Shown here piece by piece: positions 10,910 to 62,773 of a DNA stretch of 64,000 nucleotides; within the stretch, counting starts at the first letter, position 1; each line of letters begins with the position of its first letter. This stretch comes from Dehalococcoidia bacterium (lineage in GTDB: Bacteria > Chloroflexota > Dehalococcoidia > Lucifugimonadales > UBA3495). The stretch covers positions 1,161,798 to 1,225,797 of the forward strand of contig OZ244811.1 of the NCBI GenBank assembly GCA_965220105.1, read 5' to 3'. The notes beneath the pieces were generated by a model. That model was not told where the DNA came from and searched no databases. It was given only the letters and a program-made list of their open reading frames with translations. Made by a program: the position numbers and the translations under genes.

Positions 10910-10921
10910 GGTGAGGAAACC

Positions 10922-12058: not shown

Positions 12059-12065
12059 CCTGGCC

Positions 12066-18665: not shown

Positions 18666-18668
18666 CTA

Positions 18669-18783: not shown

Positions 18784-18785
18784 TA

Positions 18786-20005: not shown

Positions 20006-20085
20006 TAGGCTTTACGCATAATTTAGAAAAAGTATAAAGACAGGGTAAGCTGGCCTGACCCCACTTTCAACGGAAAGGCCCAGCC

Positions 20086-20991: not shown

Positions 20992-21074
20992 TGATAGACG
21001 ACAATTAGTCCTGCCGGTAGCGACGACTATTTTTGCCGGTCGATATGGGGTAATCATTCGGTACGGAGGTACCG

Positions 21075-22577: not shown

Positions 22578-23350
22578 TGGACACCAGCGTGATGCAGGAA
22601 CGCATCGGCCAGCTGTGCGGCCAATTCAAGCTGCCTACCATGGGGGCCCAGTCGGTGGCTCGTTTCACCGCGGCTGGCCACGGCGATGCCCTGGCCACTT
22701 TCCTGGAGGTACTGGAACAGGAAGCCGAGGATCGCCGCCACCGGCGCATCAGCCGGCTGCGTCAGTCGTCCAGGCTGCCCTCGGGCAAGACCTGGGAGAC
22801 CTTCGAGCACGACCGAGTCCCCCTGGCGCTGCAGCAGCAACTTGACCAACTGGCCCAGGGCAGCTTCGTCGAGCGCGGCGTCAACGTGCTGGCCTTCGGA
22901 CTGCCCGGCACCGGCAAGACCCACGCCCTGTGCGCCCTGGGCCACCGCCTGGTGGAAGCCGGACACTCCGTACTCTTCGCTCCGGCCTACCGCCTGGTGC
23001 AGGAGCTCCTCGCCGCCAAGCGCGACCTGGACCTGCCCCGCCAGCTGCGCAAGCTGGACAACTTCGACTTCCTGCTCCTGGACGACCTGGGCTACCTGCC
23101 CCAGGGCGCCGAAGAGTCCGAGGTCCTCTTCACCCTGATCGCCGAACGCTACGAACGCCGGTCCTTGGGCATCACCTCAAACCTGGTCTTCTCGGAGTGG
23201 GAACGCATCTTTGCCAACCCCATGGCCACCGCCGCGGCGATTGACCGGGTCGTGCACCACTCCGTCATCCTGGAGTTTGACGTCCCCAGCTACCGGACTG
23301 ACGCAGCCCAGCAACGGGGCCAAGCAAAGGAGGTGAACCGGCAAAACTGA
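22568..23350 (+). CDS. istB: IS21-family helper ATPase IstB
   Basis: Walker A GLPGTGKTH and Walker B FLLLDDLGY. It overlaps the end of istA by 10 nt. Confidence 0.9.
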   Translation: MRMMDTSVMQERIGQLCGQFKLPTMGAQSVARFTAAGHGDALATFLEVLEQEAEDRRHRRISRLRQSSRLPSGKTWETFEHDRVPLALQQQLDQLAQGSFVERGVNVLAFGLPGTGKTHALCALGHRLVEAGHSVLFAPAYRLVQELLAAKRDLDLPRQLRKLDNFDFLLLDDLGYLPQGAEESEVLFTLIAERYERRSLGITSNLVFSEWERIFANPMATAAAIDRVVHHSVILEFDVPSYRTDAAQQRGQAKEVNRQN

Positions 23351-23391
23351 TTGACGCCAACCGGCAAATATAGTTGACGCGGGACATCATT

Positions 23392-23847
23392 CGCTGGGTG
23401 CTGATCCGAGACCCCCAGGGCTCCTTCGCCACTCAGGCCCTGCTCTGTACCGACCCGGCGGCGGACCCGACCCAGATCCTGGAATGGTTTGTACTGCGCT
23501 GGCAACTGGAGGTCACCTTCCACGAGGTACGAACCCATCTGGGTGTGGAGACACAACGCCAGTGGTCCGATCTCGCCATCGCCCGCACCACGCCCGCCCT
23601 ACTGGGACTCTTCTCCTGGACCACCCTGGCCGCCCACGCGTTGCAGAAACGGCGCCCCATGACCCAGCGCAAGGCCGCTTGGTACGACAAACCGTCGCCG
23701 ACCTTCGTGGATGCCATCGCCCTGGCGCGTCGCCACCTGTGGCTGGCGTCGGAAGGTTTCTCACTGTCGGTCGCTGACCCCGACATTCAGGAACTCCCGG
23801 TCGCACTGTACCACCGACTTGTAGATTCCCTTGCCTACGCCGCTTGA
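23392..23847 (+). pseudogene. IS701/IS4-like transposase, C-terminal part
   Basis: RWVLIRDPQGSFATQALLCTDPAADPTQILEWFVLRWQLEVTFHEVRTHLGVETQRQWSDLAIARTTPALLGLFS... It is in frame with the N-terminal part once IS21 and one tcatt copy are removed. Confidence 0.75.
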
Positions 23848-23868
23848 ATTGCGTAAAGCCTAGCCAAG

Positions 23869-43898: not shown

Positions 43899-44716
43899 GG
43901 TTCTGTTGACATTTGATTATAATGGCCGTATGTCAAACATCAGATTATCACCAGAACAGTGGGCTAGGATTCTCGATTTCTTGCGTGGCTGCACCGGCTT
44001 GTACGTTGGACAGGAAGCGGATTGCCGGCGTTTTGTCGAGGCCGTCTTATGGATTAACCGCTCTGGGGCCCAGTGGCGACTGCTGCCGGCCGAATACGGG
44101 AACTGGAACACCGTCTACAAACGATTCGCCCGTTGGACTGACCAAGGGGTCTGGGAACAGATGCATCAACATTGCTCCGGCGACCCGGATCTGGAATACC
44201 TGATCATCGACAGCACGGTGGTCCGGGCGCACCCTTGCGCGGCGGGAGCTCCCCCAAAAAGGGTGGCCAGGCGGCCCAGGCCCTGGGCCGGAGCCGCGGC
44301 GGGTTCAGCGCCAAGATTCACGTGAGCGTGGACGGCTTGGGCAACCCCTTGCGATTCATCCTGACCGGCGGGCAACAGCACGACATCACCCAGGCGGAGG
44401 GTTTGATCGCCGGTTATGCTGGCGAGCACGTACTGGCCGACCAAGGGTACGATGCCCAGGAGTTTCGCCGACACATCCTGGAACTGGGCTGGACCTGGGT
44501 ATGATGCCGGTCATTCCGCCCCGCTCGAACCGCAAGGAACCCGCCGACTATGACCGGCATCTGTACCGGGAGCGTCATCTGGTGGAATGCTTCATCAACA
44601 AGATCAAGCACTATCGCCGGATCTTCTCCCGGTTTGAGAAGCTGGACACCAGATACCTGGGCTTCCTGCATTTCACCGCCGCTCTCATCTGGCTCCGGTA
44701 AAATGTCAACAGAACC
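43899..44716 (+). mobile_element. IS5-family (IS427-group-like) insertion sequence, 818 bp, 16-bp perfect IRs, flanked by TA
   Basis: ggttctgttgacattt (43899-43914) is the reverse complement of aaatgtcaacagaacc (44701-44716). Confidence 0.85.
43930..44701 (+). pseudogene. IS5/IS427-type transposase in three frames
   Basis: MSNIRLSPEQWARILDFL...RFVEAVLWINRSGAQWRLLPAEYGNWNTVYKRFARW...IIDSTVVRAHPCAAGAP, then a shift near ccccaaaaaggg to KKGGQAAQALGRSRGGFSAKIHVSVDGLGNPLRFILTGGQQHDI...LADQGYDAQEFR. A second break near 44500 precedes VIPPRSNRKEP..YDRHLYRERHLVECFINKIKHYRRIFSRFEKL. The first shift may be programmed; the second looks like damage. Confidence 0.7.
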
Positions 44717-44944: not shown

Positions 44945-45396
44945 TTGCATCATGATAACGTTGACCGAACGGTGCATGGTGCGGCAAGAGCGGCGATGAT
45001 GATGAACTCCACGATGATCGCTGACCACGAGCCCATCGTTGTGTTGATCGACGGGGATAACGCGCAGCCTTCGCTGATCGGACAAGTGCTGGCCGAAACC
45101 GCTAAATACGGACACGTTGCGGTGCGGCGAATTTATGGGGATTGGACGGCTCCGCAGATGTCCTCTTGGAAAGACGCCCTTCAATCCCACGCAGTTCAGC
45201 CCGTCCAACAATTTCGATACACCACTGGAAAAAACGCTACGGACCGTGCGTTGATCATCGATGCTATAGACCTGTTGCATTCAGGCCACGTGGGCGGGTT
45301 TTGTATAGTGTCCAGCGACAGCGACTACACTCGATTGGTTACTCGAATCAGGGAGCAGGGGTTGTTGTTGATGGGTATCGGTCGTTCGCAAACGCC
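44945..45396 (+). pseudogene. NYN-domain (LabA/limkain-type) putative RNase, C-terminus cut by an IS630-type end at 45397
   Basis: IVVLIDGDNAQPSLIGQVLAETAKYGHVAVRRIYGDWTAPQMSSWKDALQSHAVQPVQQFRYTTGKNATDRALIIDAIDLLHSGHVGGFCIVSSDSDYTRLVTRIREQGLLLMGIGRSQTP. It then meets the terminal repeat TA-gtactcagtc. The true start is probably one of the Met codons at 44996-45002. Confidence 0.7.
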
Positions 45397-45955
45397 CATA
45401 TCCCTAGTACTCAGTCAACGTTGGTAGGGCATGGGTAAAACCGATGAAGTTTGGTTCTGGCGTCGAGGGCGCTGAACGGCCAGTTGATGGTGACGCCCGC
45501 TGCGTTGCGTTGGGTGTCGTAGGCTGTGATCAGGCGTTGCAGGGCGTCGTCGTCGGGGTTTCTCCCTTTGAGACAGGAGCGGGTGAGACAGGCGCGGGTC
45601 AACACGCTGAACTCGATCTCCGGCATCCCTTCGAAGTTCAGGACAGGATTCAGCCAACTGGCGTGTTTGGGCGTGTGGTGAAACTCCAGCCGCTGCACGA
45701 TGCGCCGCTCGGTGATGGCCAGGTGGCGCCAACCCGCCAGCGGCTCGCAGGTCACGAAGAGGTTGCAAGTACCGGCGCGCCGATACTCGTAGTCCTGCTG
45801 CCGCGGTCGTCCCGGCTGGGCGGGTAGCGGCGCCCTGACCTCGGCCGGCAGTTGGGTGGAGGTCTCGTCAAAGCACACCACCGGCCCTTGGGGGTCGTAG
45901 GGCTCGGCATACAAGTCCAGCACGTCCTCCATGACCGCCACAAACTCCCCGTTCA
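45397..45955 (-). pseudogene. IS630-family transposase fragment (copy D) with terminal repeat, internally deleted and 5'-truncated
   Basis: GEFVAVMEDVLDLYAEPYDPQGPVVCFDETSTQLPAEVRAPLPAQPGRPRQQDYEYRRAGTCNLFVTCEPLAGWRHLAITERR, a deletion, then QRLEFHHTPKHASWLN... The end sequence is gtactcagtcaacgttgg at 45397. Confidence 0.7.
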
Positions 45956-46640
45956 AGCGGGGGAATCTAAAGAGCGCACATTTGAATCCACCTTTGTGAT
46001 TACCCTCCGCAAGCCGCGCAGGAAAGCCAAATCAGGTGCGCCACAATCCAAAAAAGCTAGCTCTCCAGCACCAACCGACAAGACTCGCAAACGGAAAACA
46101 GCGAAGGCGTCACGAAACGGCAAAACCACCACGGTCCAAGCGGACAACCCCAAAGACACTGTCTTCGAACTCGTAGCCCGAGTGCCCGGCCAGGTCAAAA
46201 AAGCCAGTAAGCCGCGAAAGCGCAAAGCTCCCCGACGCCCCAGCAACACGGAACAGCGGACTCTGCCGGACCTCCCGACCAGCGGCGGCGAAAGCAAGGC
46301 ATCGCCAAAGCGGCCGCCGCGCTGACCCTGTCGCCAACGCCGAACTGGCTGAACGACAACGCATCCGTCCTTACCTTTGCTCCTCATCGCTCACAGGGAA
46401 AGGTTGACGCTGTGCCGGCGTTACTGGCCGGGGTCTTCCACCGGGAGGTCGGTCGTAATGAGGGCAAAGACGCCCTCGGCATCCCGCACTGGAACGGAGC
46501 GGGTGACCATCCAGATCTCACCGCCTCCCGCATCAAAATAGGGCGCCGTCCAGACGCCCGCGTTGGCGGCCAATGGCGCCGTGACCCAAGCCTGCGACTC
46601 GATGTTGTAGGACGGCACCGCAAGGTCCAAGGTGGCGTAG
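45941..46640. repeat. right arm of the roughly 690-bp inverted repeat (partner at 38264-38951)
   Basis: See the left arm. This arm contains the 3' 220 bp of the intact Cache-like gene and a K/R-rich open frame. Confidence 0.8.
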
Positions 46641-46930: not shown

Positions 46931-48228
46931 TCACCAAATGTTGGTCGGGACTCCCGTGCCCCATTGGGGGAACCTTCAGACTTCAAGGATGGTCCCAAAG
47001 AGGCGACGACACCATACCCCGACCTTTCAGGGACGGTCAATTCAGGCTGGCCCAGCAGAAGTTGCGCATACCAACCCTGACGTCCTATCCTCGCCAGTAG
47101 CCAAGTGCGAAACAAAGGAGCGACAACAACATGCCGCTGCGAGCAACCAAGCACCAGCCATGAAAGACATACCCGAATAACGCCACAGAAGGATCATGGG
47201 CGGACCGAACTGCACTTGAATGAAGAAAAGCCAGAACCGAGGCCCGTCGGACCGCTAACAATCGGTCGCATTAGGTTCACAGCCGACGGCTCGCCAATGC
47301 CCGGTAACCGAAACGTACGCGAATTCCTCAACGAACGGGCCGCCAAGGCCGAACAGGCTAAGAAGGGCGACTTCAACACGCCCAGGCCGTGAACGAACCA
47401 AACCGTTCTTACGGCACCCCACCCCGTCGCCACCGACGAAAACGGAGACGGCCGAGTGTAGGGCAGGCCTACGTGCCCGGCCGAAATGGGGCGACATCCC
47501 GCCAACATTCCGTCAGGAGTTGTGCCCTGTGCGATCGAGTGGCGTATGTCGGCAGCTGCCGCCGCAGCCGATTCACCTCACGAGTTCGTCAGAACTCTTC
47601 ACGTACAACGCCAGTCGGCCCGCAACTACATGATGCTGCGCGAAAGGCGCAGAGAGGCTCGTTTCCAGCCCCGAGAAATAATCCTCTGGACCTCGCTAAG
47701 GGGCTCTCCATAGCCCCAGCGCAAGAATTTGGGGCATCTACCAGCGTTTGGCATCGGCTCTGATGAGATAAGACCACCCAGTCGCCAAGCGCAATCGTCC
47801 GCCGCTGGCACAATGAAAGTGTCGCCGACTGAAGGCGACGCCGGCCGGTTCTGTAGTGCAGCCACAACTGCCTGCGTTCAAATGCCCCTGACACGCCCTG
47901 AATAACAAAAGGGCAGGGAAAACGCCCGAGGCTGTCAAGGGCGGCGGCAATTCGACACTCTACGGCAATGGCCGACACCGGCGAACGGTACGACCGTTGT
48001 GCGGGTTGCAGACTCCCGAGGAAATTTCGCTACTGAGGATTTGGTCAAACGGTGCTGAAAGCGTCAGGCCCTTGGGCTGATTACGGAGATCTGTCGGTAG
48101 ATCGGTCAACATCTGACCCGCCGGCTGGGGAATCAGAGTGGTGAAATCGCCTCAATGACTGAAGCCGCCTCAACGCAAGTGCCGGGCCTGTTGTAAGATA
48201 CGGATGTCCGCGTTAAGGAGCCTGGCAA

Positions 48229-48513
48229 TTGCACTGGAAATGGGACCCGAACAAAGACAGAATAAACCAGCAAAAGCACCTCGTCAGTTTCGACACCGCC
48301 ATTCTAGCGCTGAACGACCCCTTGTCCGTCACGGACGATGACCCGTATCCCTGGGAACCTAGGCAGCGGACGACCGGAATGGTGGACAGCGTTCTGCTTG
48401 TCGTGGTTCACACGAAACCGGAATTTAATTCTCGTTACAACGTGGAGGTTGGTAGAATCATCAGCGCACGCCGAGCCACTCCGCATGAGAGGAGAATCTA
48501 TGAGGAACACTGA
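48229..48513 (+). CDS. brnT: BrnT-family (DUF497) type II toxin
   Basis: TTG start 7 nt after aggag. It reads (M)HWKWDPNKDRINQQKHLVSFDTAILALNDPLSVTDDDPYPWEPRQRTTGMVDSVLLVVVHT...GRIISARRATPHERRIYEEH, matching the BrnT pattern WD..K...N..KH.vsF..A...F.D......D.....E.R....G......RIISAR.A...E...Y. Confidence 0.8.
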   Translation: MHWKWDPNKDRINQQKHLVSFDTAILALNDPLSVTDDDPYPWEPRQRTTGMVDSVLLVVVHTKPEFNSRYNVEVGRIISARRATPHERRIYEEH

Positions 48514-49588
48514 TCTGACTCCAAGCCAGGCGGCTGAGCTGGAAGCCCTCGCGGCAATGCCCGACGAAGACATCGACACGTCCGACATTCCAGAGATAAC
48601 CGAATTCTCCAACCCACGGCGCGGCGTGTTCGCCGGCTCGCCCAACGTCAAACTTGAAACCAAGCCGGTAGAGCAACCGGCGATGAATTCGTTCGGCGGA
48701 CCGTGGACCGCGGAGAAGCTGGAGATACTCAGGCTGTACCTGAACGCGTACACTACTGCCCTGAAAAATCGTTCCTTCGAATTGGTGTACGTCGACGCCT
48801 TCGCGGGCACAGGCGCGATTGACCTGAACCCAAAAGGCGCAGCTCAAAGGCTGACTCAGTCTTGGCTGAGTGAAGAGGAACACGCAGCGGTACTGGCCGC
48901 CAACGTCATAAAAGGGTCGGCACGCGTAGCACTCGAGGTGGACGACAAACCTTTCGACAAGCTCATATTCGTGGAACAGGATCCCACGTTTGCCGAAGAA
49001 CTGATTTCGCTGAAGGGCGAGTTTCCCAACCGTAACATCCAAGTCGAAAAAGGTGAAGCCAACCAGTTCCTGCGAAAATGGTGCGAAGCCCAGGACGCAA
49101 CACGTGGCGCCCCTTGGAGGAACCAGCGAGCGGTTATATTTCTTGACCCCTTCGCCACCGAGGTAGATTGGCAAACTGTAGAAGCAATCGGGCGCACCCA
49201 GTCAGTTGATCTATGGATGCTGTTCCCGCTCTCGACGCTGAGCCGGGTGTTGCCGGTACATCGTCAACCTGACGAGAAATACGCACCACTCTTGGACCGG
49301 GTTTTCGGCAGTCCAGAATGGAGAGAGTTGTACCGCGATAGGCCCCGGCAAATGACGTTCATGGCGGGCAACCCTGAGCACACCGAAATGGTCAGGGAAG
49401 ACCAGCAAGAAATTGTTGACCGGTACTTGGCAAAGCTGAAGACGGCCTTTGCAAGTGTCGCACCTACTACTAGGTGGTTCTGCAACCGCCGCAACTCGCC
49501 GCTGTTCGCGATGATGTTCGCAGCAGCAAACCCAGGGGGAGCTCCAATTGCGGTACGGATTGCAGACCATTTGCTGAGGCGTTGGTAA
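48500..49588 (+). CDS. tcmP: TcmP (three-Cys-motif partner protein) preceded in frame by about 45 aa resembling the N-terminus of a BrnA/DUF4415 antitoxin
   Basis: The ATG at 48500 overlaps the brnT stop (ATGAGGAACACTGA). It reads MRNTDLTPSQAAELEALAAMPDEDIDTSDIPEITEFSNPRRGVF. From the ATG at 48683 it reads MNSFGGPWTAEKLEILRLYLNAYTTALKNRSFELVYVDAFAGTGAIDL... (TcmP-like N-terminus with a MTase-motif-I-like DAFAGTG). Either start is possible. Confidence 0.65.
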   Translation: MRNTDLTPSQAAELEALAAMPDEDIDTSDIPEITEFSNPRRGVFAGSPNVKLETKPVEQPAMNSFGGPWTAEKLEILRLYLNAYTTALKNRSFELVYVDAFAGTGAIDLNPKGAAQRLTQSWLSEEEHAAVLAANVIKGSARVALEVDDKPFDKLIFVEQDPTFAEELISLKGEFPNRNIQVEKGEANQFLRKWCEAQDATRGAPWRNQRAVIFLDPFATEVDWQTVEAIGRTQSVDLWMLFPLSTLSRVLPVHRQPDEKYAPLLDRVFGSPEWRELYRDRPRQMTFMAGNPEHTEMVREDQQEIVDRYLAKLKTAFASVAPTTRWFCNRRNSPLFAMMFAAANPGGAPIAVRIADHLLRRW

Positions 49589-49591
49589 ATC

Positions 49592-50359
49592 ATGGCTCAG
49601 AATACCGGCATTGAGTGGACAGATTCGACTTGGAATCCCGTGACGGGGTGCCAAAAGATCAGCCCGGGCTGCAAAAACTGCTACGCCTCTCGCTTGGCGG
49701 CACGCCTACAGGCCATGGGCAATCCCCGCTACGTGAACGGATTCGAGGTCACCTTGCACCATGATTTGGTGACACTTCCGACGAAATGGGTCAAACCCCG
49801 AAAGATCTTCGTCAACTCAATGAGTGACCTGTTTCACGACGAAGTACCTCTGGGCTTCATCCAGTCGGTGTTTTCCACCGTCGTCGTCGCCGACCACCAC
49901 ACCTTTCAGGTCCTGACCAAGCGGCCAGAGCGCGCCCTGGAGATGGCTGACGAACTTCCATGGCCGGAAAACCTTTGGATGGGTGTCTCGGTTGAAAATC
50001 CAGACTACTTGTACCGTGTGGACACGCTCCGCTGTATCCCGGCGCAGACGCGGTTTCTGTCGTTAGAGCCACTGATAGAAGCCATCCCGGACATTAACTT
50101 GGACAGCATAGACTGGGTAATTGCTGGTGGCGAATCAGGGCCAAAGGCTAGGGAAATCGAGGAGGCTTGGGTTCAGAGCATCCGTGACCAGTGTGACGAT
50201 GCAGGAGTGCGTTTCTTCTTCAAGCAATGGGGCGGGACTAACAAAAAACGCAATGGACGGATGCTGGACAACAGAACGTGGGACGATTTCCCTCTCGTCA
50301 AATCTTGTCCACCTGCTGACGTAAATACTGTCCTGACAGGCAGGCTACAACCGGCGTAG
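49592..50359 (+). CDS. DUF5131 / phage Gp37-Gp68 family protein (three-Cys motif)
   Basis: The start is 4 nt after the tcmP stop. It reads MAQNTGIEWTDSTWNPVTGCQKISPGCKNCYASRLA...IFVNSMSDLFH...TFQVLTKRPER...FLSLEPL...DWVIAGGESGPKAR...FFFKQWGG. Confidence 0.8.
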   Translation: MAQNTGIEWTDSTWNPVTGCQKISPGCKNCYASRLAARLQAMGNPRYVNGFEVTLHHDLVTLPTKWVKPRKIFVNSMSDLFHDEVPLGFIQSVFSTVVVADHHTFQVLTKRPERALEMADELPWPENLWMGVSVENPDYLYRVDTLRCIPAQTRFLSLEPLIEAIPDINLDSIDWVIAGGESGPKAREIEEAWVQSIRDQCDDAGVRFFFKQWGGTNKKRNGRMLDNRTWDDFPLVKSCPPADVNTVLTGRLQPA

Positions 50360-50617
50360 GTCTCCGTTAGAGACTGCAGAATGCGGAAACGAGATTGGTA
50401 GCAGCGTTGATCGCTTTCTGCCGTCCTTCGGCCAAATCGCGAGTAGCGAAATCGCCTCGCATACCAGACGACCTTTCCGGTGTCCACACACAGGTATAGT
50501 GTACCCTGCCACCACAAATCACCAACGACCTCAGTTTCCTTATCTGCCGCCGAGCTGCCGTCACAGGCATCCAACGCAATCACCACTTGCTTGCGACACC
50601 CCAACTCACCGGTTCCC

Positions 50618-53600
50618 ATGCCCACCTATTCCCACATCACTCGCTACTACGACGAACTCTCCCAACTCATCGAGTTCGGCGGTGCGGACAACGAGGAAAA
50701 CATCCGCCCGGCGTTCCAGAACTGCCTGTCCGACTACTGCAAGGAACACTCGGAACGGTTCGTGCTCGTGCCCGAACTGCGCTCCGACCGCAGCAACAAG
50801 CCTGACGGGACGGTCCGGGACTCACTGCGCATGACGCGCGGCTTGTGGGAGGCCAAGGACATCCACGACGATCTAGACCGCGAGATCCGCAACAAACTGG
50901 GCCAAGGCTATTCTGGAGACAACATCCTTTTCGAGAACTCGCGCACCGCCGTGCTGGTCCAGGGCGACCAGGAGGTGATGCGGACCGACATGGCCAACGC
51001 GGCCACACTGGACGAGCTGATCCACAGGTTCCTGGACTACGAACTGCCGGAGATCCAGGAGTTCCGGGAAGCAAGGCAGCAGTTCAAGGATGACCTGCCT
51101 GCCGTGTTGGAAAGCCTTCGTGAAACCATCGTAGAGGCCGAAGCCGGCAACGCGGAGTACCAAGGGGCAGCACAGTTGTTCCTTGAACTGTGCCACCAGT
51201 CCATCAGTCCCAACGTCACTAACGACAACGTCAGGGAGATGCTGATCCAGCACATTCTCACGAAGGACATCTTCCTGCGGGTGTTCGCCGAGGATCAGTT
51301 CCATCGCGAGAACAACGTCGCCCGCCAGCTGGACGCCCTCGAGGGCACCTTCTTCATCGGCAACGTGCGCCGGCAGGCCGTTGACCGTTTGAGGGCCTAC
51401 TACGGCGCCATCGGTCGCGCCGCTGACGACATCGCCGAGTACGGCGAGAAGCAGCAGTTCCTGAAGGGTATCTACGAAGATTTCTACCAGGCTTACAACC
51501 CTGGCGCCGCCGACCGCCTCGGCGTGGTGTACACGCCCAACGAGGTGGTGAACTTCATCATCCGTGGCACTGACTGGCTGCTCCAAAAGCACTTCGGCAA
51601 AACGCTGGGCGACAAAAACGTGAACATCCTTGACCCAGCGACTGGAACGGGCACGTTCATCACAAACCTGATGAACCACCTGCCGGCGGACCGGCTGGAG
51701 TACAAGTATCAGAATGAGATCCACGCCAATGAGGTGGAGATTCTCCCCTACTACATCGCCAACCTGAACATCGAGTACACGTACAAGGAGTTGACGGGCG
51801 ACTACCTGGAATTCCCGAACCTGTGCTTTGTGGACACGTTGGACAACATGGACTGGAAAGGTGCCAGTGGCGCCGCGGTCCAGCGGCAGACGATGCTGAA
51901 CCTTGGTGGTGTCTCGGAAGAGAACTGGATCCGAGTGCAGGAGCAGAACGAGAAGCCCATCAGCGTAATCATCGGGAACCCGCCGTACAACGACCAACAG
52001 CGCAACTGGTACGACGACAACCCAAACCGTAAGTACCCCGAAATAGATAGGCGCATCCGCGAAACTTACGTCAAGGAAAGTACGGCTCAACGTACCCACC
52101 AGTACGACATGTACAAGCGGTTCATCCGGTGGGCGTCAGACCGTCTTGAGGACGACGGAATCATCGGATTTGTCAGCAACAGCGCGTTTTTGGACTCCCG
52201 GCAGGACGACGGCTTCCGCAAAGTCGTGGCTGAGGAATTCAATGAGCTGTGGGCCATTGACCTGAAGGGCAACGCCCGCACCAGTGGTGAGCGGCGCCGA
52301 CAGGAAGGTGGTAACGTCTTCGACGACAAGATCCGTGTCGGCGTGGCCATTTACTTCTTGGTGCGTCGAAAAGGAGTGAATGGATTCAAGGTTTATTACG
52401 ACGTAGTAGCCGATTACGCCAAGGCTTTCGACAAGGTTGCCTACATCAGCGAGCAGTCGATTGACGGTTTGGAGTTTGTGGAAATCAACCCTGATAGCAA
52501 GGCTAACTGGATCGACCAGTCGGACAGCGGTTTTGGCGAACTGACTCCAGTCGCCGACCGACACACCAAATTGGCCAAAAGTGCGTCGGATGAGCGGGCC
52601 GTCTTCGGCCTGTTCTCTGTGGGAATCAGCACGAACCGGGATGAGTGGGTATACGATTTCGACGACAGTTCCCTTTCCAACAAGATGCTGTTCTTTTGTA
52701 GAACCTACCAGAATGAGCTTCAGCGATTTGCGGCTGAGAAGCCAGACCCCGACTCGGTTGGCAATTGGGTTGACCGGTCCATAAAGTGGACTACCGAGCT
52801 GGAACAACATCTGGTCAAAGGCAGTACGATCCCGTTCACGACGCTCAGGCTCGTTCCGGGGTTGTACCGGCCTTTCGTGGCCAAGCATTGTTACTACGCT
52901 CCCGTAGTTACGCACCGCCGTTACCAGATACCTCAGGTGTTTCCCCATGACCTGACGGTGGAGAACAAAGTCATTTGTTTTCCCGGCAACGCAGCCAGCA
53001 ATGGCTTTCAAGCCTTGGCGACGGACAAGGTGTTCTCGCACGACCTGCTGAAAACGACTCAGTGCCTGCCTCTCTACTGCTACACGCCCAAAGGCGAGCG
53101 AGTCAGCAATATCACCGAGTGGGGATTGAGGCAGTTCCGTGAGCATTACGGCGACGACAGCATCATGGCTGAGGACATCTTCGCTTACGTGTACGCCATG
53201 CTCCACGACCCAGCGTACCGCTCACGATACGAGGTAGACTTGAGGCGGGAGTTTCCGCGGGTGTACTTCCAAGAAGATTTCGCTTGGTGGGCTCACCAGG
53301 GCCGGGAGCTACTGGACCTGCACCTAGGATTTGAGGCGGCGGAGCCATGGCCGCTGGAGCGGACCGACAAGGACAGCGTAACGCCGCCCCGGGTCATCCT
53401 GCGGGCTGATAAGGATCTCGGCATCATCACGCTGGATGGGCAGACGACGCTGACCGGCGTCCCAGCTGAGGCGTGGGAGTACCGACTGGGTAACCGCTCA
53501 GCGCTCGAATGGGTTCTCGACCAGTACAAGGAGCGCAAGCCCCGTGATCCGACTATCCGTGAGCGGTTCAACACCTACCGCTTCGCGGACCACAAGGAAC

Positions 53601-53698
53601 GGGTTGTCGACCTGCTGGGCCGCGTATGTGCCGTGAGCGCGTTCACAACGACCATCGTGAACGAGTTGGGTGTCAGGTCCTCAGTCGAGCTGGATTAG
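50618..53698 (+). CDS. single-polypeptide type IIG-like restriction/modification enzyme (N-terminal PD-ExK-like motif, N6-adenine MTase, C-terminal specificity region), intact
   Basis: The ATG at 50618 lies within track ORF 50480..53698. It reads ...FVLVPELRSDRSNKPDGTVRDSLRMTRGLWEAKDIHDDL (D...ExK), NILDPATGTGTFI (motif I), and VIIGNPPYNDQQ (motif IV). The long C-terminal part resembles type ISP/IIG target-recognition regions. The minus-strand ORFs 50873..52099 and 52136..53206 are antisense noise. Confidence 0.8.
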   Translation: MPTYSHITRYYDELSQLIEFGGADNEENIRPAFQNCLSDYCKEHSERFVLVPELRSDRSNKPDGTVRDSLRMTRGLWEAKDIHDDLDREIRNKLGQGYSGDNILFENSRTAVLVQGDQEVMRTDMANAATLDELIHRFLDYELPEIQEFREARQQFKDDLPAVLESLRETIVEAEAGNAEYQGAAQLFLELCHQSISPNVTNDNVREMLIQHILTKDIFLRVFAEDQFHRENNVARQLDALEGTFFIGNVRRQAVDRLRAYYGAIGRAADDIAEYGEKQQFLKGIYEDFYQAYNPGAADRLGVVYTPNEVVNFIIRGTDWLLQKHFGKTLGDKNVNILDPATGTGTFITNLMNHLPADRLEYKYQNEIHANEVEILPYYIANLNIEYTYKELTGDYLEFPNLCFVDTLDNMDWKGASGAAVQRQTMLNLGGVSEENWIRVQEQNEKPISVIIGNPPYNDQQRNWYDDNPNRKYPEIDRRIRETYVKESTAQRTHQYDMYKRFIRWASDRLEDDGIIGFVSNSAFLDSRQDDGFRKVVAEEFNELWAIDLKGNARTSGERRRQEGGNVFDDKIRVGVAIYFLVRRKGVNGFKVYYDVVADYAKAFDKVAYISEQSIDGLEFVEINPDSKANWIDQSDSGFGELTPVADRHTKLAKSASDERAVFGLFSVGISTNRDEWVYDFDDSSLSNKMLFFCRTYQNELQRFAAEKPDPDSVGNWVDRSIKWTTELEQHLVKGSTIPFTTLRLVPGLYRPFVAKHCYYAPVVTHRRYQIPQVFPHDLTVENKVICFPGNAASNGFQALATDKVFSHDLLKTTQCLPLYCYTPKGERVSNITEWGLRQFREHYGDDSIMAEDIFAYVYAMLHDPAYRSRYEVDLRREFPRVYFQEDFAWWAHQGRELLDLHLGFEAAEPWPLERTDKDSVTPPRVILRADKDLGIITLDGQTTLTGVPAEAWEYRLGNRSALEWVLDQYKERKPRDPTIRERFNTYRFADHKERVVDLLGRVCAVSAFTTTIVNELGVRSSVELD

Positions 53699-55015: not shown

Positions 55016-58000
55016 ATGAGAATTCCGAGACTACCCGCCAGACCATGGGTTGCGGCCGTCGCCGTAGTGGCGACCGCAGCAATCCTGGTCGCAACGGGCG
55101 TGGGCCAGACTCACGCCACCGATCCAACCAACCCGCAGATCGACGAGAACACGCCCGGCGGTACCGCCGTGGGCACCCCCTTGAACGCATCGGCGGACGG
55201 TAGCACCGTCAGCTACGCGCTCTCCGGACCGGACGCCGCCAACTTCAACATCAACCCCGCAACCGGCGAGGTCAGTCTCGCCCAAGACGTGAGCCCCGAC
55301 TTCGAGGCCAAGTCCGAGTACTCCCTGACCGTGACGGCCATCGCGGACATCACCGTGCAGGTGTTGAACGTGGACGAGCCGGGAACCGTCGCCCTGTCCA
55401 CCGATGAGCCAGGCGCGGGAGAAACCATCACCGCGGTCCTCAGCGACCCCGACGGCAGCATAGCCAACGTCCGGTGGTCCTGGACACACTCCGACGGCGA
55501 CGACTGGAACGTCATCCCCGGCGCAACGGCAACGTCCTACACGACGACCACCGCCGACATCGGGCGCCGCATTGAGGCCACGGCCAGCTACGACGACGGA
55601 GCCGGCGTCGGCCACCAAGCCAACGCAGCCACCGCCAACCCGGTGCGTAACGACCCGCCGGTCTTCCCGGACGGAACGGCCACGAGGCAGGTTGACGAGA
55701 ACGCCACTGCCGGCACTCCCGTCGGCACACCCGTGACCGCCTCCGACCCCAACGGAGACGGAATCACCTACTCCGTGGCCGGCAGCGCCGACTTCACCAT
55801 TGACCCCAACACGGGGCAGATCTCGGTTGCTGAGGGCACAAGCCTTGACCACGAGGCCGGGGCGACTCACACCCTGACCGTCACGGCAACCGACTCCCAC
55901 GGCGACGCCGGATATGCCACCGTGACGGTGAACGTCGCCAACGTCGAGGAGACCGGCGCCGTAACGCTCAGCCATGACCGACTACGCGCCGGCGTGGTCA
56001 TCACGGCGACGCTATCCGACCCCGACGGCAATGTCTCAGGTGAGACCTGGCAGTGGAACCAGAGCGACGAACCCATCGACGGAGCCACCGCCAATTCCCA
56101 CACCGTTACGACCGACGACGTGGGCCACGTCCTGAGCGCAACCGTCCGGTACACCGACGGCCACGGCCCGGGCAAATCCGCACGCGCCGCCACCGCGTCC
56201 GCCATCGGCAACGACGCGCCGGCCTTCCCGACGAACACGTTCAGTCGCTCCATCGACGAGAACGCAGCTACCGGAACGGCGGTCGGCGAACCGGTTATCG
56301 CCACCGACCCCAACAGCGACACCGTGACCTACACGCTCGCCAGTGGGGACGCATTCTCCGTACGGGTAGACGGGACCATCGTGAGCAATGGGGTTCTCGA
56401 CTACGAGACCAGCGCCAGCCACACCGTCAGCCTGACCGCCACGGACGTACACGGCGCCACCGCAGACGCCGTCGTCACCATCACGGTGAACAACGTCGAT
56501 GAGGCCGGCGTCGTTGCGCTGAGCAACCAAGCGCCCAAGGTGGGCGACACCGTGACGGCCAGCCTGACCGACCCCGACGGCGCAACGTCGGCCCACTCCT
56601 GGCAGTGGCAACAAGACGAAGGCAACGCCTGGAACGACATCAGCGACGCCAACGCCGGCGACTACACCGTCGGGAGCGCCGACATCGGCCACCTGCTGCG
56701 TGCCGTCGTTTCCTACACCGATCCCCAGGGACCGGGCAAGAGCGCGTCCGCCCAGACGGAAAACGCCGTCGCCAACGACCCGCCCACGTTCACGACCGCC
56801 GACCCGATGAACGCCGCCGTGGCCGAGAACGCGCCACTGGGCGCCTTCGTCGGACAGCCCCTGCAGGCCACCGACCCCAACGACGACCCGCTGAACTTCT
56901 CCCTGTCCGGAACGGACGCGGAAACCTTCTCGGTTGACGCCGCAGGGCAGATCAGCATGACCGCCGTGCCCAACTACGAGGCTCGCAGTTCCTACCAGGT
57001 CACCGCCACGGTGAGCGACCCGGCCGGCGGCAGCGACGCCATCACGGTCAACATCGCGGTGCAGAACGTCGAGGAACCGGGTTCAGTAGCGTTCGACACC
57101 GACGCCAGCCCCGAGGTCAACATCCGGCTCACCGCAGCCCTGGACGACCCCGACGGCAGCGTTGCGGCCGAAGCCTGGCAATGGCAGTCCAGTGGTTCCG
57201 CATCCGGTCCCTGGGCCGACGTGAGCGAAGCCACCAACGCCGCCTACACGCCCAACGCCGCCGACGTGCACCGTTACCTGCAAGCCACCGTAAGCTACAC
57301 GGACGGACACGGCGACAACGTGGACACCGCGTCGGCGATCAGCGCCTTTGCAGTTACACCGGAACCCAACCGGCCGCCGCGGTTCGGCGAGCACACCGCC
57401 ACCTTCAACATCAGCATCAACGTACGCGAGGGCGTTAGGGTAGCCCCGCCGTTCACCGCAACCGACCCGAACGGCGACACCCTCACGTATTCCATCGTCT
57501 CCGACACCCCGGGCGCCTTCACCATCAACCCCGCCACCGGCGAGGTCCTGATGGGCAGCCTCGAGATCTCCGAGGGCGACACCTACACGGCGTCCATCAG
57601 CGTCAGCGACGGCGTCGATGGCGAGTGGCGGGAAGACCGCACGGCGGACGACACCCTCAGCCTCACCATGACGATCATCAACCCCAACATCGTCATCGCG
57701 CCGTCCTCACGGTCAGCCTTCCCCAAGGGCCTCTGGGTGGACGACGACATCGTGGTCACCACCAACGACGTCAGCGGCTACTCCAACCGCGACCAGGCGA
57801 TGGTCTACGACCGCGCCACCCAGCAGTATCTGGAAGACCGCGGCTTCGCGGTGGGCGGACGCAGCTATCCCTCCATACACGGGCTCTGGAGCGACGGCGC
57901 CACTCTCTACGTGCTGACTGCCGACCGGAACCGGAGCAACCCCAGGGGCAAGATCTTCGCCTACCGGCTCTCCGACGGAGCCCGTCAGAGTTCCAGCGAC

Positions 58001-58387
58001 ATCGCGCTGCACCGCAACAACTCCCATCCCTACGGGCTGACCGGACGGGACGGCGTCATCTACGTCGGCGACAACCGCGACGACAAGATCTACGCCTACA
58101 ACATCGCGAGCGGGAACCGCCAAAGCTCCAGCGAGATCAACGGCATCGACACCCTGAAACGGGACATGACCGCCCTCTGGACGGACGGCGAGACCATCTG
58201 GATCAGCTACTGGCTGAGCGAGTTCATCCGGGCCTACGACGTCGCAACCGGAGCGCGCAAGCCCGGCCTGGACGTCCAGCTGGCCTGGGAGAACGCCGGC
58301 CCGTCCGGCATCTACTCCGACGGCTTCAACCTATGGGCGCTGGACTCGGTCAACGACACCATCTACGGGTACGTCCTGCCCCAGTAG
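55016..58387 (+). CDS. large secreted adhesin-like protein: 5 cadherin-like domains alternating with 4 Ig-like DPDG modules, plus a C-terminal beta-propeller-like repeat region
   Basis: Signal peptide ...AAILVATGVGQTHA. Cadherin-like units read (ID/VD)EN...G..VG.P..A.DP(N/D).D..TY(S/T)L.....F..(D)..TG.(I/V)S.....LD.E.....Y.LTVTA.D. Intervening units read NV(D/E)E.G.V.LS......G..(I/V)TA.L.DPDG......WQW......W..I..A....YT....D(I/V)G..L.A.VSYTDG.G. The tail has repeats of the type LWSDGATLYVL...KIFAYRL, ALWTDGETIWIS...IRAYDV and GIYSDGFNLWAL...IYGYVL. Confidence 0.85.
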   Translation: MRIPRLPARPWVAAVAVVATAAILVATGVGQTHATDPTNPQIDENTPGGTAVGTPLNASADGSTVSYALSGPDAANFNINPATGEVSLAQDVSPDFEAKSEYSLTVTAIADITVQVLNVDEPGTVALSTDEPGAGETITAVLSDPDGSIANVRWSWTHSDGDDWNVIPGATATSYTTTTADIGRRIEATASYDDGAGVGHQANAATANPVRNDPPVFPDGTATRQVDENATAGTPVGTPVTASDPNGDGITYSVAGSADFTIDPNTGQISVAEGTSLDHEAGATHTLTVTATDSHGDAGYATVTVNVANVEETGAVTLSHDRLRAGVVITATLSDPDGNVSGETWQWNQSDEPIDGATANSHTVTTDDVGHVLSATVRYTDGHGPGKSARAATASAIGNDAPAFPTNTFSRSIDENAATGTAVGEPVIATDPNSDTVTYTLASGDAFSVRVDGTIVSNGVLDYETSASHTVSLTATDVHGATADAVVTITVNNVDEAGVVALSNQAPKVGDTVTASLTDPDGATSAHSWQWQQDEGNAWNDISDANAGDYTVGSADIGHLLRAVVSYTDPQGPGKSASAQTENAVANDPPTFTTADPMNAAVAENAPLGAFVGQPLQATDPNDDPLNFSLSGTDAETFSVDAAGQISMTAVPNYEARSSYQVTATVSDPAGGSDAITVNIAVQNVEEPGSVAFDTDASPEVNIRLTAALDDPDGSVAAEAWQWQSSGSASGPWADVSEATNAAYTPNAADVHRYLQATVSYTDGHGDNVDTASAISAFAVTPEPNRPPRFGEHTATFNISINVREGVRVAPPFTATDPNGDTLTYSIVSDTPGAFTINPATGEVLMGSLEISEGDTYTASISVSDGVDGEWREDRTADDTLSLTMTIINPNIVIAPSSRSAFPKGLWVDDDIVVTTNDVSGYSNRDQAMVYDRATQQYLEDRGFAVGGRSYPSIHGLWSDGATLYVLTADRNRSNPRGKIFAYRLSDGARQSSSDIALHRNNSHPYGLTGRDGVIYVGDNRDDKIYAYNIASGNRQSSSEINGIDTLKRDMTALWTDGETIWISYWLSEFIRAYDVATGARKPGLDVQLAWENAGPSGIYSDGFNLWALDSVNDTIYGYVLPQ

Positions 58388-59902: not shown

Positions 59903-62773
59903 ATGATTCACGCCAACATACGACGAACACCCATCATATTCGCCGCCCTAGCGGCATTGGTGCTGGCTGTTGCCGCACTCGCACTCTACGCCCATCCGAC
60001 ACAGGCGCAGGACGGCTCCGCGCCGGATAAGCCCAGGGGCCTCGAAGCCACGACGTCACACGGCCAGGTGGTCCTCACCTGGGACGACCCCGACGACGAG
60101 AGCATCACCGGCTACGTGATCCTGCGGCGCATCCGCGTCAACAATCAAGGCGGCGACTTCAGTGTATTGGTGGCGGACACCAGCAGTGCGGCCACCACCT
60201 ACACCGACGACACGGTGGCGGCCAGCACCACCTACACCTACCGCATCAAGGCCATCAACCAGCACGGTACCAGCGAGCGCTCCCGCTGGTACCACATCGA
60301 CACCCCGGCGCCCCCCGTGCCCGACCAGCCCAGGGGCCTCTCCGCAGCGGCGTTCCACGACCAGGTGACCCTGACCTGGGACGATCCTGACGACGACAGC
60401 ATCACCGGCTACGTCATCCTGCAGCGCAACCGTGATACCAGCGCCGAGGGCGAGTTCACCGAACTGGTGGCGGACACCGGCACGGCGGCGACCACCTACA
60501 CCGACGGCACCGTGGCGGCGGAGACACGCTACACCTACCGCATCAAGGCGATCAACGAGCATGGGACCAGCGGACGGTCCCGCTGGCTCCACATCGACAC
60601 TCCGGCGGCCCCAGCGGCCCCAGTGGGCCAGCAGAACACACAGGAGAGCGCAGACCCGCCAACCACGACGGAACCCGCGGATGGCGACTTCGCCGACGGC
60701 ACGACGACCACCGGACGGGTGGCGGTGGGCGAGTCCATCGTGGGCCGCATCGGAACCGCCGACGACGTGGACTGGATCCTGGTGCAGGCCGACCCCGGCC
60801 AGTGGTTCACCATCACCCTCACCGGATATGGCGAGGGCGCTTACACCGCCCTGGAGACGCCTCACCAGCAGGCCTACCACCGGCCGGACGGCTCGGTGCT
60901 GGTCTCCGAGCACGCGCTGAACCAGGACCGGCCTCCCTGCAGCGCGGGCTGCACCCACGTCGAGGTCTCACAGGCCGGTTCCCGCTACGTGGCGGTGGCC
61001 TCCCTGATCGGCGACAACACCCACAACACCGGTTCCTACCGGCTGACCGTCACGCTGGAACGCGCCCACGAGGGCGTGGACGGCGGCGTGGACCTGGCGC
61101 TCGACGTGTCCGACGACGTCGACACCCGGGGGTTTCTGCGCATGCTGACGCCCGAGCAGTTCCCCGGTTTCAACCCAAGCTGGAACCGGGTGTTCGGCGC
61201 CATCCCGCCGCACGACGTCGACTGGTATCGCATCGACCTGGAAGCGGGCCGCGCCTACCGGTTCGGGTTGCGCCAGAGCGACACTGACCTGCGGCTCCGG
61301 CTGCGGGACTCCGGCGGGTCCGTCATCGGCTCAATCCGCTCGGGCCGGACCATCCACGCCGCGGCGTGCGCCGAGGGCAGCCATTACATCGAGGTCTTCC
61401 GGCCCGACGGCGCCCCGCCGGCCATGACCAACTACGTCGTCGAGGCCGCCCACACCGACGGCCTGGAAACAGAGGCGCTCCGGGGCAACCTGCCCAACAC
61501 CGGACAGGTCCAGCTGCACTGGCAGTGCTACGGCATCGCCGACTCCCACCAGGTGCAGTTCCGCCTCGACGGACAGTGGACGACCCTCTCCGCAAACGGC
61601 GGCAACCCGGCCGGCATCGGGCTGGAATATCTGAACGACGGATTTGCCGCCAAGGTAACCGGCCTGCCCACCGGCGACGACTACGCCGACTACGAGTTCC
61701 GCATCACGCGGGTGGTGGACGGCGTGGCGACGACGGACCACCAAGACGTTTCCATCGTGGTAATCCCGGACACTCCGGGCAACCTGCGGGGCGGCTGGAA
61801 CCTCCGTTACTACCCCGACGCACTCACCTTCGAGTGGGACGCCACGGCGGGCGACAACGTGGACTACGAAGTCCAGATCAAAGACCAGCAGGAAGAGCAG
61901 TGGATTGCCCTGGGAGACGGGTTGGAACAGCCGCCCGGCCTGATCCACCGGTTCGACGGGAAAACCCGCGTCAAGATCCTGGCGGCGTCCCCGCGCTACG
62001 TCTCCTACCCACAGCCGTCGTGGACCCGCGGTGAACACGTCCTCATGAGGGTGCGGGCCATCCAGTACGGCCAGGCATCGCCGTGGTCGGATGACTTCGA
62101 GGTGTGGTTCGCCGACCAAATGTGGCTGGCGGTCAGAAACCGCGACGGCGCGATGACCGCCGACGGTCAGGCCACGCTGACGTGGGGCGCTCCGGACTAC
62201 TTCGGAGACGGCGCCTTCCGGCCCATCACCACCTTCGTGATGTACCGCATGGACGGCGAATGGCTGCACCTGCTGCCCGGCCACGACGTGAACGGCGTCA
62301 CCGTCGCGGTGGTGAGCAACCGCGCGGTGGTGAGCGGTCTGCCGACCGGCTTGCCAAGCTACGAGTTCGCCATACGGCACCTGGGAAGGCACGTCCCCAC
62401 CTACGGCACGTCCCTGCTGATCCTGTCCGAATGGTCCCGCACCATCACCATCGCCACGGACCTGGCGACCCCCGGGCGGCCCGATGCTGAGCAGATTGGC
62501 AGCGGGCAATTGTCGCTCAGCTGGGATCCGGTGGCGGACGCAACCCAGTACCGGCTGCGCCTCTGGACGGTGGACCGCTGGGAGGAGCTGGACGGCGAGG
62601 ACGATGGCGCAGTGTCGGTAACGACGTCCGACACGACGGCCATCGTGTCGGACCTGCCCAGTGAATATTACTGGTACATCTTCGAGGTGCGGGCGCTGGG
62701 CCCCCACGGCGTCCAGCAGTCCGCCTGGTCGCCCAACATCGCGGTGTTCAACCAGCACCGTCCCAGCAACTAG
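59903..62773 (+). CDS. secreted multi-domain protein: 2 N-terminal FN3 domains, 2 pre-peptidase-C-terminal (PPC)-like domains, further FN3/Ig-like domains
   Basis: RBS aaaggagg, then the signal peptide. FN3 units read PDKPRGLEATTSHGQVVLTWDDPDDESITGYVILRR....G.F..LVADT...ATTYTD.TVAA.T.YTYRIKAIN.HGTS.RS. PPC-like units read GRIGTADDVDWILVQADPGQWFTITL and IPPHDVDWYRIDLEAGRAYRFGL. The long minus-strand ORF 61331..62785 is antisense noise. Confidence 0.85.
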   Translation: MIHANIRRTPIIFAALAALVLAVAALALYAHPTQAQDGSAPDKPRGLEATTSHGQVVLTWDDPDDESITGYVILRRIRVNNQGGDFSVLVADTSSAATTYTDDTVAASTTYTYRIKAINQHGTSERSRWYHIDTPAPPVPDQPRGLSAAAFHDQVTLTWDDPDDDSITGYVILQRNRDTSAEGEFTELVADTGTAATTYTDGTVAAETRYTYRIKAINEHGTSGRSRWLHIDTPAAPAAPVGQQNTQESADPPTTTEPADGDFADGTTTTGRVAVGESIVGRIGTADDVDWILVQADPGQWFTITLTGYGEGAYTALETPHQQAYHRPDGSVLVSEHALNQDRPPCSAGCTHVEVSQAGSRYVAVASLIGDNTHNTGSYRLTVTLERAHEGVDGGVDLALDVSDDVDTRGFLRMLTPEQFPGFNPSWNRVFGAIPPHDVDWYRIDLEAGRAYRFGLRQSDTDLRLRLRDSGGSVIGSIRSGRTIHAAACAEGSHYIEVFRPDGAPPAMTNYVVEAAHTDGLETEALRGNLPNTGQVQLHWQCYGIADSHQVQFRLDGQWTTLSANGGNPAGIGLEYLNDGFAAKVTGLPTGDDYADYEFRITRVVDGVATTDHQDVSIVVIPDTPGNLRGGWNLRYYPDALTFEWDATAGDNVDYEVQIKDQQEEQWIALGDGLEQPPGLIHRFDGKTRVKILAASPRYVSYPQPSWTRGEHVLMRVRAIQYGQASPWSDDFEVWFADQMWLAVRNRDGAMTADGQATLTWGAPDYFGDGAFRPITTFVMYRMDGEWLHLLPGHDVNGVTVAVVSNRAVVSGLPTGLPSYEFAIRHLGRHVPTYGTSLLILSEWSRTITIATDLATPGRPDAEQIGSGQLSLSWDPVADATQYRLRLWTVDRWEELDGEDDGAVSVTTSDTTAIVSDLPSEYYWYIFEVRALGPHGVQQSAWSPNIAVFNQHRPSN

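Follow-up and report, generated by a model that had tools for sequence, protein, structure and literature searches.

A putative mobile cassette joining a BrnT toxin, an antitoxin-TcmP fusion and a DUF5131 protein in a Dehalococcoidia genome

Do four neighbouring genes that look like a compact defence module belong to one system? The question is raised by positions 48229 to 53698 of a 64,000-nucleotide (nt) stretch of a Dehalococcoidia genome (contig OZ244811.1; the whole stretch is called the window below), where genes for a BrnT-type toxin, a TcmP protein with an antitoxin-like N-terminus, a DUF5131 (Gp37/Gp68 family) protein and a large restriction-modification (RM) enzyme follow one another. 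A sequence-only reading had grouped all four into a single DNA-modification or defence module. The comparisons described here divide them. The first three appear to form a cassette bounded by inverted repeats, in which an antitoxin segment is fused to TcmP, and the restriction enzyme is best read as a separate neighbour. Judging from the sequence comparisons, we regard as established the boundaries of the cassette, its occurrence in several contexts, the fusion, purifying selection on all four of its segments and the strict pairing of TcmP with DUF5131.

Extent of the conserved unit

All four genes are co-directional, on the plus strand, in the open reading frame (ORF) map of the window. BrnT (94 amino acids (aa); 48229-48513) has a TTG start with AAGGAG 8 nt upstream. 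It is overlapped by 14 nt by a 362-aa ORF (48500-49588) that encodes, as one protein, the N-terminal 55 residues of a BrnA-type antitoxin (BrnA'; 48500-48664), followed by a 7-residue linker (PVEQPAM) and TcmP (48665-49588). The DUF5131 gene (49592-50359) begins after a gap of 3 nt, not the 4 nt first given; the 14-nt overlap and the 258-nt gap between DUF5131 and the restriction enzyme (50618-53698) had been read correctly. The families named from the sequence alone also held up against profile models, all above their cut-offs: BrnT matched PF04365 with 65.3 bits (cut-off 34.5; E-value 6e-18) over profile positions 1-77 of 77, TcmP matched TIGR04474 with 167.6 bits (cut-off 53; E 5e-49), and DUF5131 matched PF07505 with 328 bits (cut-off 28.9; E 3.5e-98).

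The DUF5131 protein is identical on at least 22 metagenome contigs, and in all ten of the contigs displayed the same BrnT and the same 362-aa gene stand upstream of it. Downstream, the ten contigs vary, with an 80-aa ORF and insertion sequence (IS) elements in most and Uma2 in one; the restriction enzyme is found in none of them. When the region was compared by blastn with 11 related contigs (about 99% identity, but 87% for contig L011), similarity ran from 48016, 48212 or 48064 to 50458 or 50464. It begins at 48016 in the contigs of the L001 type, spans 48212-50459 in L005, and extends in L002 through a shared left flank back to 45954 before diverging 6 nt past the cassette end; the divergent L011 stops at the same right-hand base. 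The right-hand ends thus fall at 50458-50464 in five different right-flank contexts, and there are four different left junctions. These limits coincide with an imperfect inverted repeat of 33 nt (48017-48049 and 50427-50459, 79% complementary) that can be extended to about 47 nt, the left repeat showing weaker similarity inward to about 48063. An internal direct copy of the terminal motif, GAGTGGTGAAATCGCCTC, lies at 48136-48153 on the plus strand, about 75 nt upstream of BrnT, and in one of four contexts, that of the L001 type, the sequence CAAATCC stands on both sides of the unit as a direct repeat of 7 bp. Rfam (E up to 1) and promoter and terminator scans of 47-51 kb gave nothing above chance.

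We conclude from these alignments that 48017-50459 is a 2.44-kb inverted-repeat-bounded cassette of BrnT, BrnA'::TcmP and DUF5131. We read it as non-autonomous because no recombinase gene lies inside 48017-50459, and within closely related genomes of sponge-associated Chloroflexota it appears to have travelled between several sites. It resembles mobile insertion cassettes and passenger-carrying non-autonomous IS derivatives in having terminal inverted repeats, cargo genes and no transposase inside, and in occurring in several contexts at about 99% identity. It differs from them in showing a flanking direct repeat in a single context and in having ends similar to those around a TnpB-like unit elsewhere. 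That unit, of 2.7 kb, was met in a scan of Joint Genome Institute (JGI) metagenomes for the 17-nt end motif AGTAGCGAAATCGCCTC, which returned 120 loci, nearly all of them chance matches; only contig L149 and several sponge-metagenome contigs seemed related. On L149, an otherwise unrelated contig, the motif delimits 9986-12718, where a TnpB-like gene lies, and a direct repeat of 27 nt encloses the whole. Inverted repeats and target duplications are normally absent from elements of the TnpB family. The motif also recurs in contigs with the accession prefix MKWU01 (L120, L127, L152, L164, L168 and L180), which we take to be a sponge metagenome. In the window it occurs four times with up to two mismatches (947-963, 48018-48034, 48137-48153 and 50442-50458), against 0.14 expected, and it may represent the end of a transposon, a site of recombination or a small family of repeats. 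An integron gene cassette was considered and rejected, the ends ...GAAATCGCCTC and GAGGAAATTTC... being without the attC GTTRRRY core.

Two of the related contigs show more of the surrounding genome. L001 matches the window in two distant places, its positions 1-670 and 18283-20010 corresponding to 20798-23867 and 3736-5101 at 92-99% identity; because such distant segments are shared, the L001-type contigs, in which the cassette sits at an ABC-transporter site, appear to derive from the same or a very close genome in rearranged form. On L002 (10896-20768) the cassette is followed by Uma2, EMARD_N/DUF7380, a different 972-aa type IIG enzyme (Eco57I/TaqI_C) and a PLD-SNF2 helicase. Since L002 shares the left flank and carries different genes on the right, the right end of the cassette appears to be a rearrangement point between two sets of defence genes.

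The gene on the right in the window is of an already known kind. Residues 8-1018 of the 1026-aa enzyme, whose ATG is at 50618, align to residues 7-1025 of the 1029-aa protein in PDB entries 7LO5/7LVV (E=0), and PDB 7LO5 is DrdV. The PADLOC model REase_MTase_IIG matches over the full length (E=0), and Pfam returns Type_ISP_C, ISP_coupler and N6_Mtase. The translation contains PDG...EAK (PD-ExK), DPATGTG (motif I) and NPPY, the same set as in DrdV, in an architecture of PD-ExK nuclease, coupler, NPPY gamma-type methyltransferase and C-terminal target recognition domain. DrdV is a characterised and structurally solved type IIL single polypeptide that methylates single sites and cleaves once several unmethylated sites come together (bioRxiv 10.1101/2021.01.06.425610). 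Identity with the type ISP enzymes LlaGI and LlaBIII was ruled out: only the C-terminal ~830 aa are common, with the alignment covering LlaGI 588-1399 and LlaBIII 752-1571 only, and there is no helicase. An exact-protein look-up of the 1026-aa sequence returned no record. Because the conserved unit ends at the inverted repeat (50459), 158 nt before the enzyme's ATG, and because the enzyme is absent from the other copies, we place it outside the cassette as an independent DrdV-type neighbour, and the proposal that the four genes form one module does not survive the comparison.

An antitoxin segment joined to TcmP

What appears to be new in the cassette is an antitoxin segment attached to TcmP, found only in this lineage. 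BrnT has the RelE/ParE-superfamily ribonuclease fold and matches chain A, the toxin chain, of PDB 7VD7 (E 5e-12). That entry holds a BrnT-like toxin together with a 44-residue antitoxin chain, and residues 9-44 of BrnA' align to this chain. BrnA' also aligns to PF14384 members (P0260-P0265), with a common region ELxALAAMxDxxIDTSDIPE, and over residues 1-55 it shows 100% identity to P0241, a BrnA-like protein that stands alone. Taken alone, the segment has no Pfam match at E up to 1. BrnA homology stops at residue 55, immediately after ...ETK (nt 48664), where TcmP follows through its linker; the ribbon-helix-helix (RHH) domain is thus absent from the BrnA' part, and the whole conserved antitoxin part is retained. 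BrnA', which had been noted as a possible addition to TcmP, is by these alignments part of a true in-frame fusion rather than a neighbouring remnant.

The fusion is rare in the family and preserved where it occurs. Among the 120 best of 2177 TcmP matches, coverage of the N-terminal 62 residues is confined to two clusters, P0001 (98%, 43 members) and P0002 (88%). BrnT is full length and the fusion reading frame is kept in all 11 cassette copies. Between the window and the 87%-identical L011, the ratio of nonsynonymous to synonymous substitution rates (dN/dS) is 0.29 for BrnT, 0.22 for BrnA', 0.14 for TcmP and 0.11 for DUF5131, values that point to purifying selection on the in-frame fusion. Moreover, the internal methionine of TcmP is replaced by threonine in P0001 and L011, so that in these two variants TcmP can apparently be produced only as the fusion. 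We suggest that the fusion probably makes TcmP the antidote of BrnT, addicting the host to the cassette.

Within the BrnA family an antitoxin without a DNA-binding domain is unusual. BrnA' is related to a family of 65-78-aa proteins from the same habitat that are likewise without the C-terminal RHH domain. On related contigs, genes for a BrnT of 94 aa and a BrnA of 76 aa, again RHH-less, overlap by the same 14 nt and make up a simple locus of two genes. Such pairs of 94-aa BrnT and RHH-less 'mini-BrnA' (65-78 aa, no Pfam match) are seen on L098-L102 (genes 3730-4014 and 4001-4231), where they sit among housekeeping genes such as gyrA and that for enoyl-CoA hydratase. The cassette shares with the classical BrnT/BrnA system (Brucella abortus brnTA; PF04365/PF14384) the toxin-first order, the 14-nt overlap, the 94-aa BrnT and the N-terminal ELxALAAMxDxxIDTSDIPE motif of the antitoxin. 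It differs in that its antitoxin is without the RHH domain and has TcmP in place of the antitoxin tail. The RHH domain of BrnA is its DNA-binding part and serves autoregulation (PMC11980606); because the cassette has no such domain, BrnA-style autoregulation cannot work in the same way there. The fusions known in this family join BrnT to BrnA, whereas here BrnA is joined to an enzyme.

A piece of the junction also occurs away from the cassette. The 199 nt at 48466-48664, comprising the last 16 brnT codons and the first 55 BrnA-like codons, are 96-99% identical on 37-38-kb contigs (L095-L097), and the DNA here therefore appears to recombine actively. These contigs are flagged as circular and look plasmid-like, with a D5_N primase and an integrase; they carry a shortened brnT, and their BrnA-like ORF continues into another tail.

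The TcmP/DUF5131 pair and its neighbourhoods

TcmP and DUF5131 are already listed together as PADLOC phage-defence candidate PDC-M41, one of 145 such candidates that were defined by embedding in BREX, DISARM or type I RM systems (bioRxiv 10.1101/2024.01.29.577857). The models PDC-M41A (E 2e-83 to TcmP) and PDC-M41B (E 2e-112 to DUF5131) match the two adjacent proteins over their full length, and the strict pairing is as in the family definition; unlike PDC-M41 as defined, the cassette has an N-terminal antitoxin segment on TcmP, a preceding BrnT and inverted repeats at its limits. The sequence-only reading, in which the pair was recognised only as a gene pair, is therefore slightly outdated; the literature searched assigns the pair no activity. 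The same search found no mention of PDC-M41 and no experimental study of DUF5131 or TcmP. The PDC-M41 pair, like the enzyme, is thus of an already known kind; the antitoxin fusion and the inverted-repeat-bounded cassette are new.

The predicted structures suggest what the pair might do. The AlphaFold2 model of TcmP (mean predicted local distance difference test score, pLDDT, 82) has a class I S-adenosylmethionine (SAM)-methyltransferase fold. Its best PDB match is 2OO3 (E 1.7e-7), annotated as Pfam DUF519, which we take to be the RlmJ family, and there are further matches to the RsmD-type structures 2FPO and 2FHP. In the modelled fold motif I, VDAFAGTG, comes directly after strand 1; E97 follows strand 2, D124 strand 3 and D154-P-F-A strand 4, and the SAM-binding positions are invariant or nearly so in 32 homologues. 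DUF5131 is modelled as a partial triosephosphate isomerase (TIM) barrel (pLDDT 85) whose best PDB match is spore photoproduct lyase (probability 1.0, template modelling (TM) score 0.47), followed by NifB and LipA (lipoyl synthase) at TM 0.33-0.47. In a viral structure library the model matches other Gp37/Gp68 proteins and many radical SAM proteins, MiaB- and RlmN-like ones among them. The N-terminal C-x6-C-x2-C motif noted earlier is confirmed, C20, C27 and C30 being invariant in 42 homologues, and GGESGP is invariant or nearly so. DUF5131 matches TIGR04471 with E 8e-20 and 71 bits, below the cut-off of 355. When solved structures were searched by sequence, DUF5131 gave no match and TcmP a marginal RsmD-like one only.

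DUF5131 is listed in SFLD as a radical SAM subgroup (PMC9477430). With spore photoproduct lyase and the radical SAM proteins of SFLD megacluster 5 it shares the partial TIM barrel, three cysteines after strand 1 and a GGE-like motif, and spore photoproduct lyase is itself a DNA-acting radical SAM enzyme. From the two models we propose, with moderate confidence, that the pair is a two-enzyme system of a SAM-dependent and a radical-SAM protein acting on nucleic acid, of which we infer both substrate and product. The earlier suggestion that the pair acts on DNA thus finds indirect backing, as nucleic-acid action, in the predicted RlmJ/RsmD-like and spore-photoproduct-lyase-like folds.

The pair is strictly conserved and its surroundings are not. 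In a scan of one genome per species, 80 loci were collected, nearly all from Chloroflexota (Dehalococcoidia, SAR202, Caldilineaceae); we read several of the isolate names as pointing to sponge hosts. DUF5131 adjoins TcmP in 80 of 80 (26 with TcmP first, 54 with DUF5131 first). BrnT and BrnA' lie near the pair at none of the 80, and a homologue of the restriction enzyme lies within 10 kb at one, L051, where it is 37% identical, 1 kb away and on the opposite strand. No third gene is conserved beside the pair, the largest neighbour cluster (14 of 80 loci) being a housekeeping gene. Among the 150 immediate neighbours at 75 Chloroflexota loci, alpha/beta hydrolases (11), IMP dehydrogenase (5) and gamma-glutamyl transpeptidase (4) are commonest, and no PADLOC defence model matches more than 2. 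From these Pfam and PADLOC counts it appears that the pair does not lie within defence islands in Chloroflexota.

Outside this phylum the pair, or TcmP with another partner, is found on mobile DNA. TcmP occurs on 11 plasmid records, seven of them conjugative, and on Sinorhizobium meliloti pSymA it and Hna are given as one putative unit. On plasmid pC052_C of Nostoc sp. C052 (L093, 5823-7885), a TcmP of 37% identity is divergent from a canonical CxxxCxxC Radical_SAM protein, which takes the place of DUF5131, and the two lie directly beside BREX-1 (PglZ, BrxL, BrxA). DUF5131 is present in 181 phage records and TcmP in two Synechococcus phages; in the one examined, Ssp-JY39, DUF5131 is convergent to TcmP. 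In Gordonia phage Jablanski (L103, 3492-5361) DUF5131 (gp42) convergently overlaps a 374-aa 'methyltransferase' (gp43) that is remotely homologous to TcmP (hhalign 90%). The integrases lie on one side of the two genes and the immunity repressor on the other, and RelE/RelB is about 2.6 kb away. The region between integrase and immunity repressor is where actinophages carry prophage-expressed defence genes. The defence system of Gordonia phage CarolAnn was also considered, but it is RexAB-like and unrelated. The TcmP family comprises some 4,100 clusters at 50% identity, and nearly all of the 150 best are 275-315 aa long. An exception is P0303, on a 1.7-kb JGI contig (L225), a TcmP with a 125-aa N-terminal extension that has no Pfam match; DUF5131 follows it, and it overlaps by 4 nt the preceding gene, whose C-terminus is weakly like a restriction endonuclease domain (PF19778, E 0.18). 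Judged by eye the extension looks nucleotidyltransferase-like, a resemblance on which no argument here is built.

In the window, the low G+C content noticed by eye is real: it is 0.569 at the four genes against 0.615 elsewhere, within the lowest 2% of equal-sized windows. The defence island said to surround them stands in part, with an MmeI-type methyltransferase and an NYN gene; the rest is an IS-rich, mixed region with metabolic genes. Around the cassette lie a frameshifted IS4/5-type transposase (43906-44701), the NYN-domain gene (44945-45427) and an IS630-like DDE_3 fragment (45411-45956); IS66, Mutator and IS21 IstB genes and the one MmeI-type methyltransferase domain occur elsewhere in the window. 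Further right, at 55016-58387 and 59903-62770, are genes for very large repeat proteins with cadherin and fibronectin-type III domains, built on internal DNA repeats of roughly 560 bp, whose G+C content (0.67) is well above that of the four-gene region.

Competing explanations

The explanation that we prefer, and judge somewhat probable, is that the cassette is a selfish or accessory mobile unit in which the fusion neutralises BrnT and so addicts the host, the pair modifies nucleic acid, and the restriction enzyme is a chance neighbour, brought next to the cassette by insertion or rearrangement in variable, IS-rich DNA rather than linked to it in function. A BrnA-type antitoxin that was already without its RHH domain in this lineage would have had its 55-residue toxin-binding N-terminus joined in frame to TcmP. 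The fusion protein would neutralise the BrnT ribonuclease through the grafted peptide, and cells that lost or silenced the cassette would be poisoned by BrnT. TcmP would bind SAM and hold a nucleic-acid substrate in its RlmJ/RsmD-like pocket, and DUF5131, with a [4Fe-4S] cluster on its three cysteines, would cleave a second SAM to start radical chemistry on the substrate held by TcmP. The product may be a covalent nucleic-acid modification that serves defence or the self-marking of mobile DNA.

Several observations weigh against this explanation. The D-P-F-A of TcmP departs from the (D/N)PP(Y/F) motif (DPPY) of amino-methyltransferases, and its aromatic residue is not kept in the Gordonia homologue. 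DUF5131 has no match to PF04055 (Radical_SAM) at E up to 0.01, its cysteines are spaced C-x6-C-x2-C rather than as CxxxCxxC, as also distinguishes it from spore photoproduct lyase (C-x3-C-x2-C), and its fold matches are weak (Foldseek E 2e-3, TM 0.47, identity 11% to the lyase). Most Chloroflexota copies of the pair adjoin housekeeping genes, a poor fit to defence, and the literature searched shows no activity for TcmP, DUF5131 or PDC-M41. As to mobility, the 7-bp flanking repeat is found in a single context and within locally palindromic sequence, the JGI scan for the end motif turned up no transposase with these ends, and the similar termini of the TnpB-like unit on L149 leave the candidate kind of mobile element broad.

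The same data bear on four other accounts. That all four genes form a DNA-modification or restriction module, with the pair supplying or reading a modification for the type IIG enzyme, would suit their common direction, close spacing and the low G+C content of the region as a whole, and at L051 a 37%-identical enzyme does lie 1 kb from the pair; but that enzyme is encoded on the other strand, conservation of the unit stops at the inverted repeat, its ten other copies are without the enzyme, and DrdV-type enzymes act alone with their own methyltransferase and nuclease. The comparative data have already largely refuted this account, which we hold to be extremely improbable. It is highly improbable, too, that the fusion is a functionless accident of a recent deletion beside an already inactive BrnT. 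Its confinement to one lineage would agree with such an accident, as would the frequent recombination shown by the junction piece on the 37-kb circular contigs; however, 11 copies carry a full-length BrnT, neither BrnT nor BrnA' has a dN/dS as high as 0.3, the frame is kept in the 87%-identical copy, and the breakpoint spares the entire conserved antitoxin part. An accessory rRNA- or tRNA-modification activity, neither a defence nor a DNA system, that hitch-hikes with a toxin-antitoxin module would explain why the best structural matches of TcmP are rRNA methyltransferases (2OO3, RsmD 2FPO), why DUF5131 matches MiaB- and RlmN-like enzymes and why the neighbours at 75 loci are mostly housekeeping genes. 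We find it improbable, given the sparse distribution of the pair (505 confirmed matches among 185,579 species genomes in a pattern-limited scan), its varying location with no neighbour common to more than 14 of 80 loci, its presence on conjugative plasmids, in prophage lysogeny regions and beside Hna and BREX, and its detection within BREX, DISARM or type I RM systems.

The account that we place next after our own treats the three cassette genes as one abortive-infection system, in which the pair senses or responds to infection and the BrnA' tether releases BrnT as the effector. The in-frame fusion has survived 13% nucleotide divergence and is under purifying selection; it is the sole route to TcmP in two variants; the pair is a defence candidate yet has no obvious effector of its own; and P0303, with its 125 aa, is a second N-terminally extended TcmP. 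Against this, an antitoxin fused to any cargo would be retained, since its loss kills the cell, and the P0303 extension is of no recognisable family. In addition, because BrnT and BrnA' are missing at 80 of 80 other loci and the N-terminal part from 118 of the 120 best TcmP matches, the pair appears to work without the toxin elsewhere. We therefore consider a dedicated abortive-infection system unlikely, though worth keeping in mind. A related idea, that of an enzyme that is itself the antidote, seems to us distinctly unlikely: TcmP, with DUF5131, would hold BrnT by the BrnA' peptide until a change of substrate or state, for example on phage infection, freed the toxin. If true, such a hybrid would directly link radical-SAM nucleic-acid chemistry to an abortive-infection ribonuclease.

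TcmP and DUF5131 form a widespread pair, with copies on plasmids, beside BREX and Hna and in the lysogeny regions of prophages. The locus does not itself reveal the chemistry of the pair; from the predicted folds, SAM-dependent and radical-SAM reactions on nucleic acid are the ones to look for. To have placed the restriction enzyme outside the system corrects a tempting mis-grouping and should avert misleading experimental design. The natural fusion predicts a direct and readily assayed interaction between BrnT and the TcmP fusion protein, and at 2.4 kb the unit is compact enough to be cloned whole. Independently of the toxin, the pair may install a nucleic-acid modification that has not yet been described.

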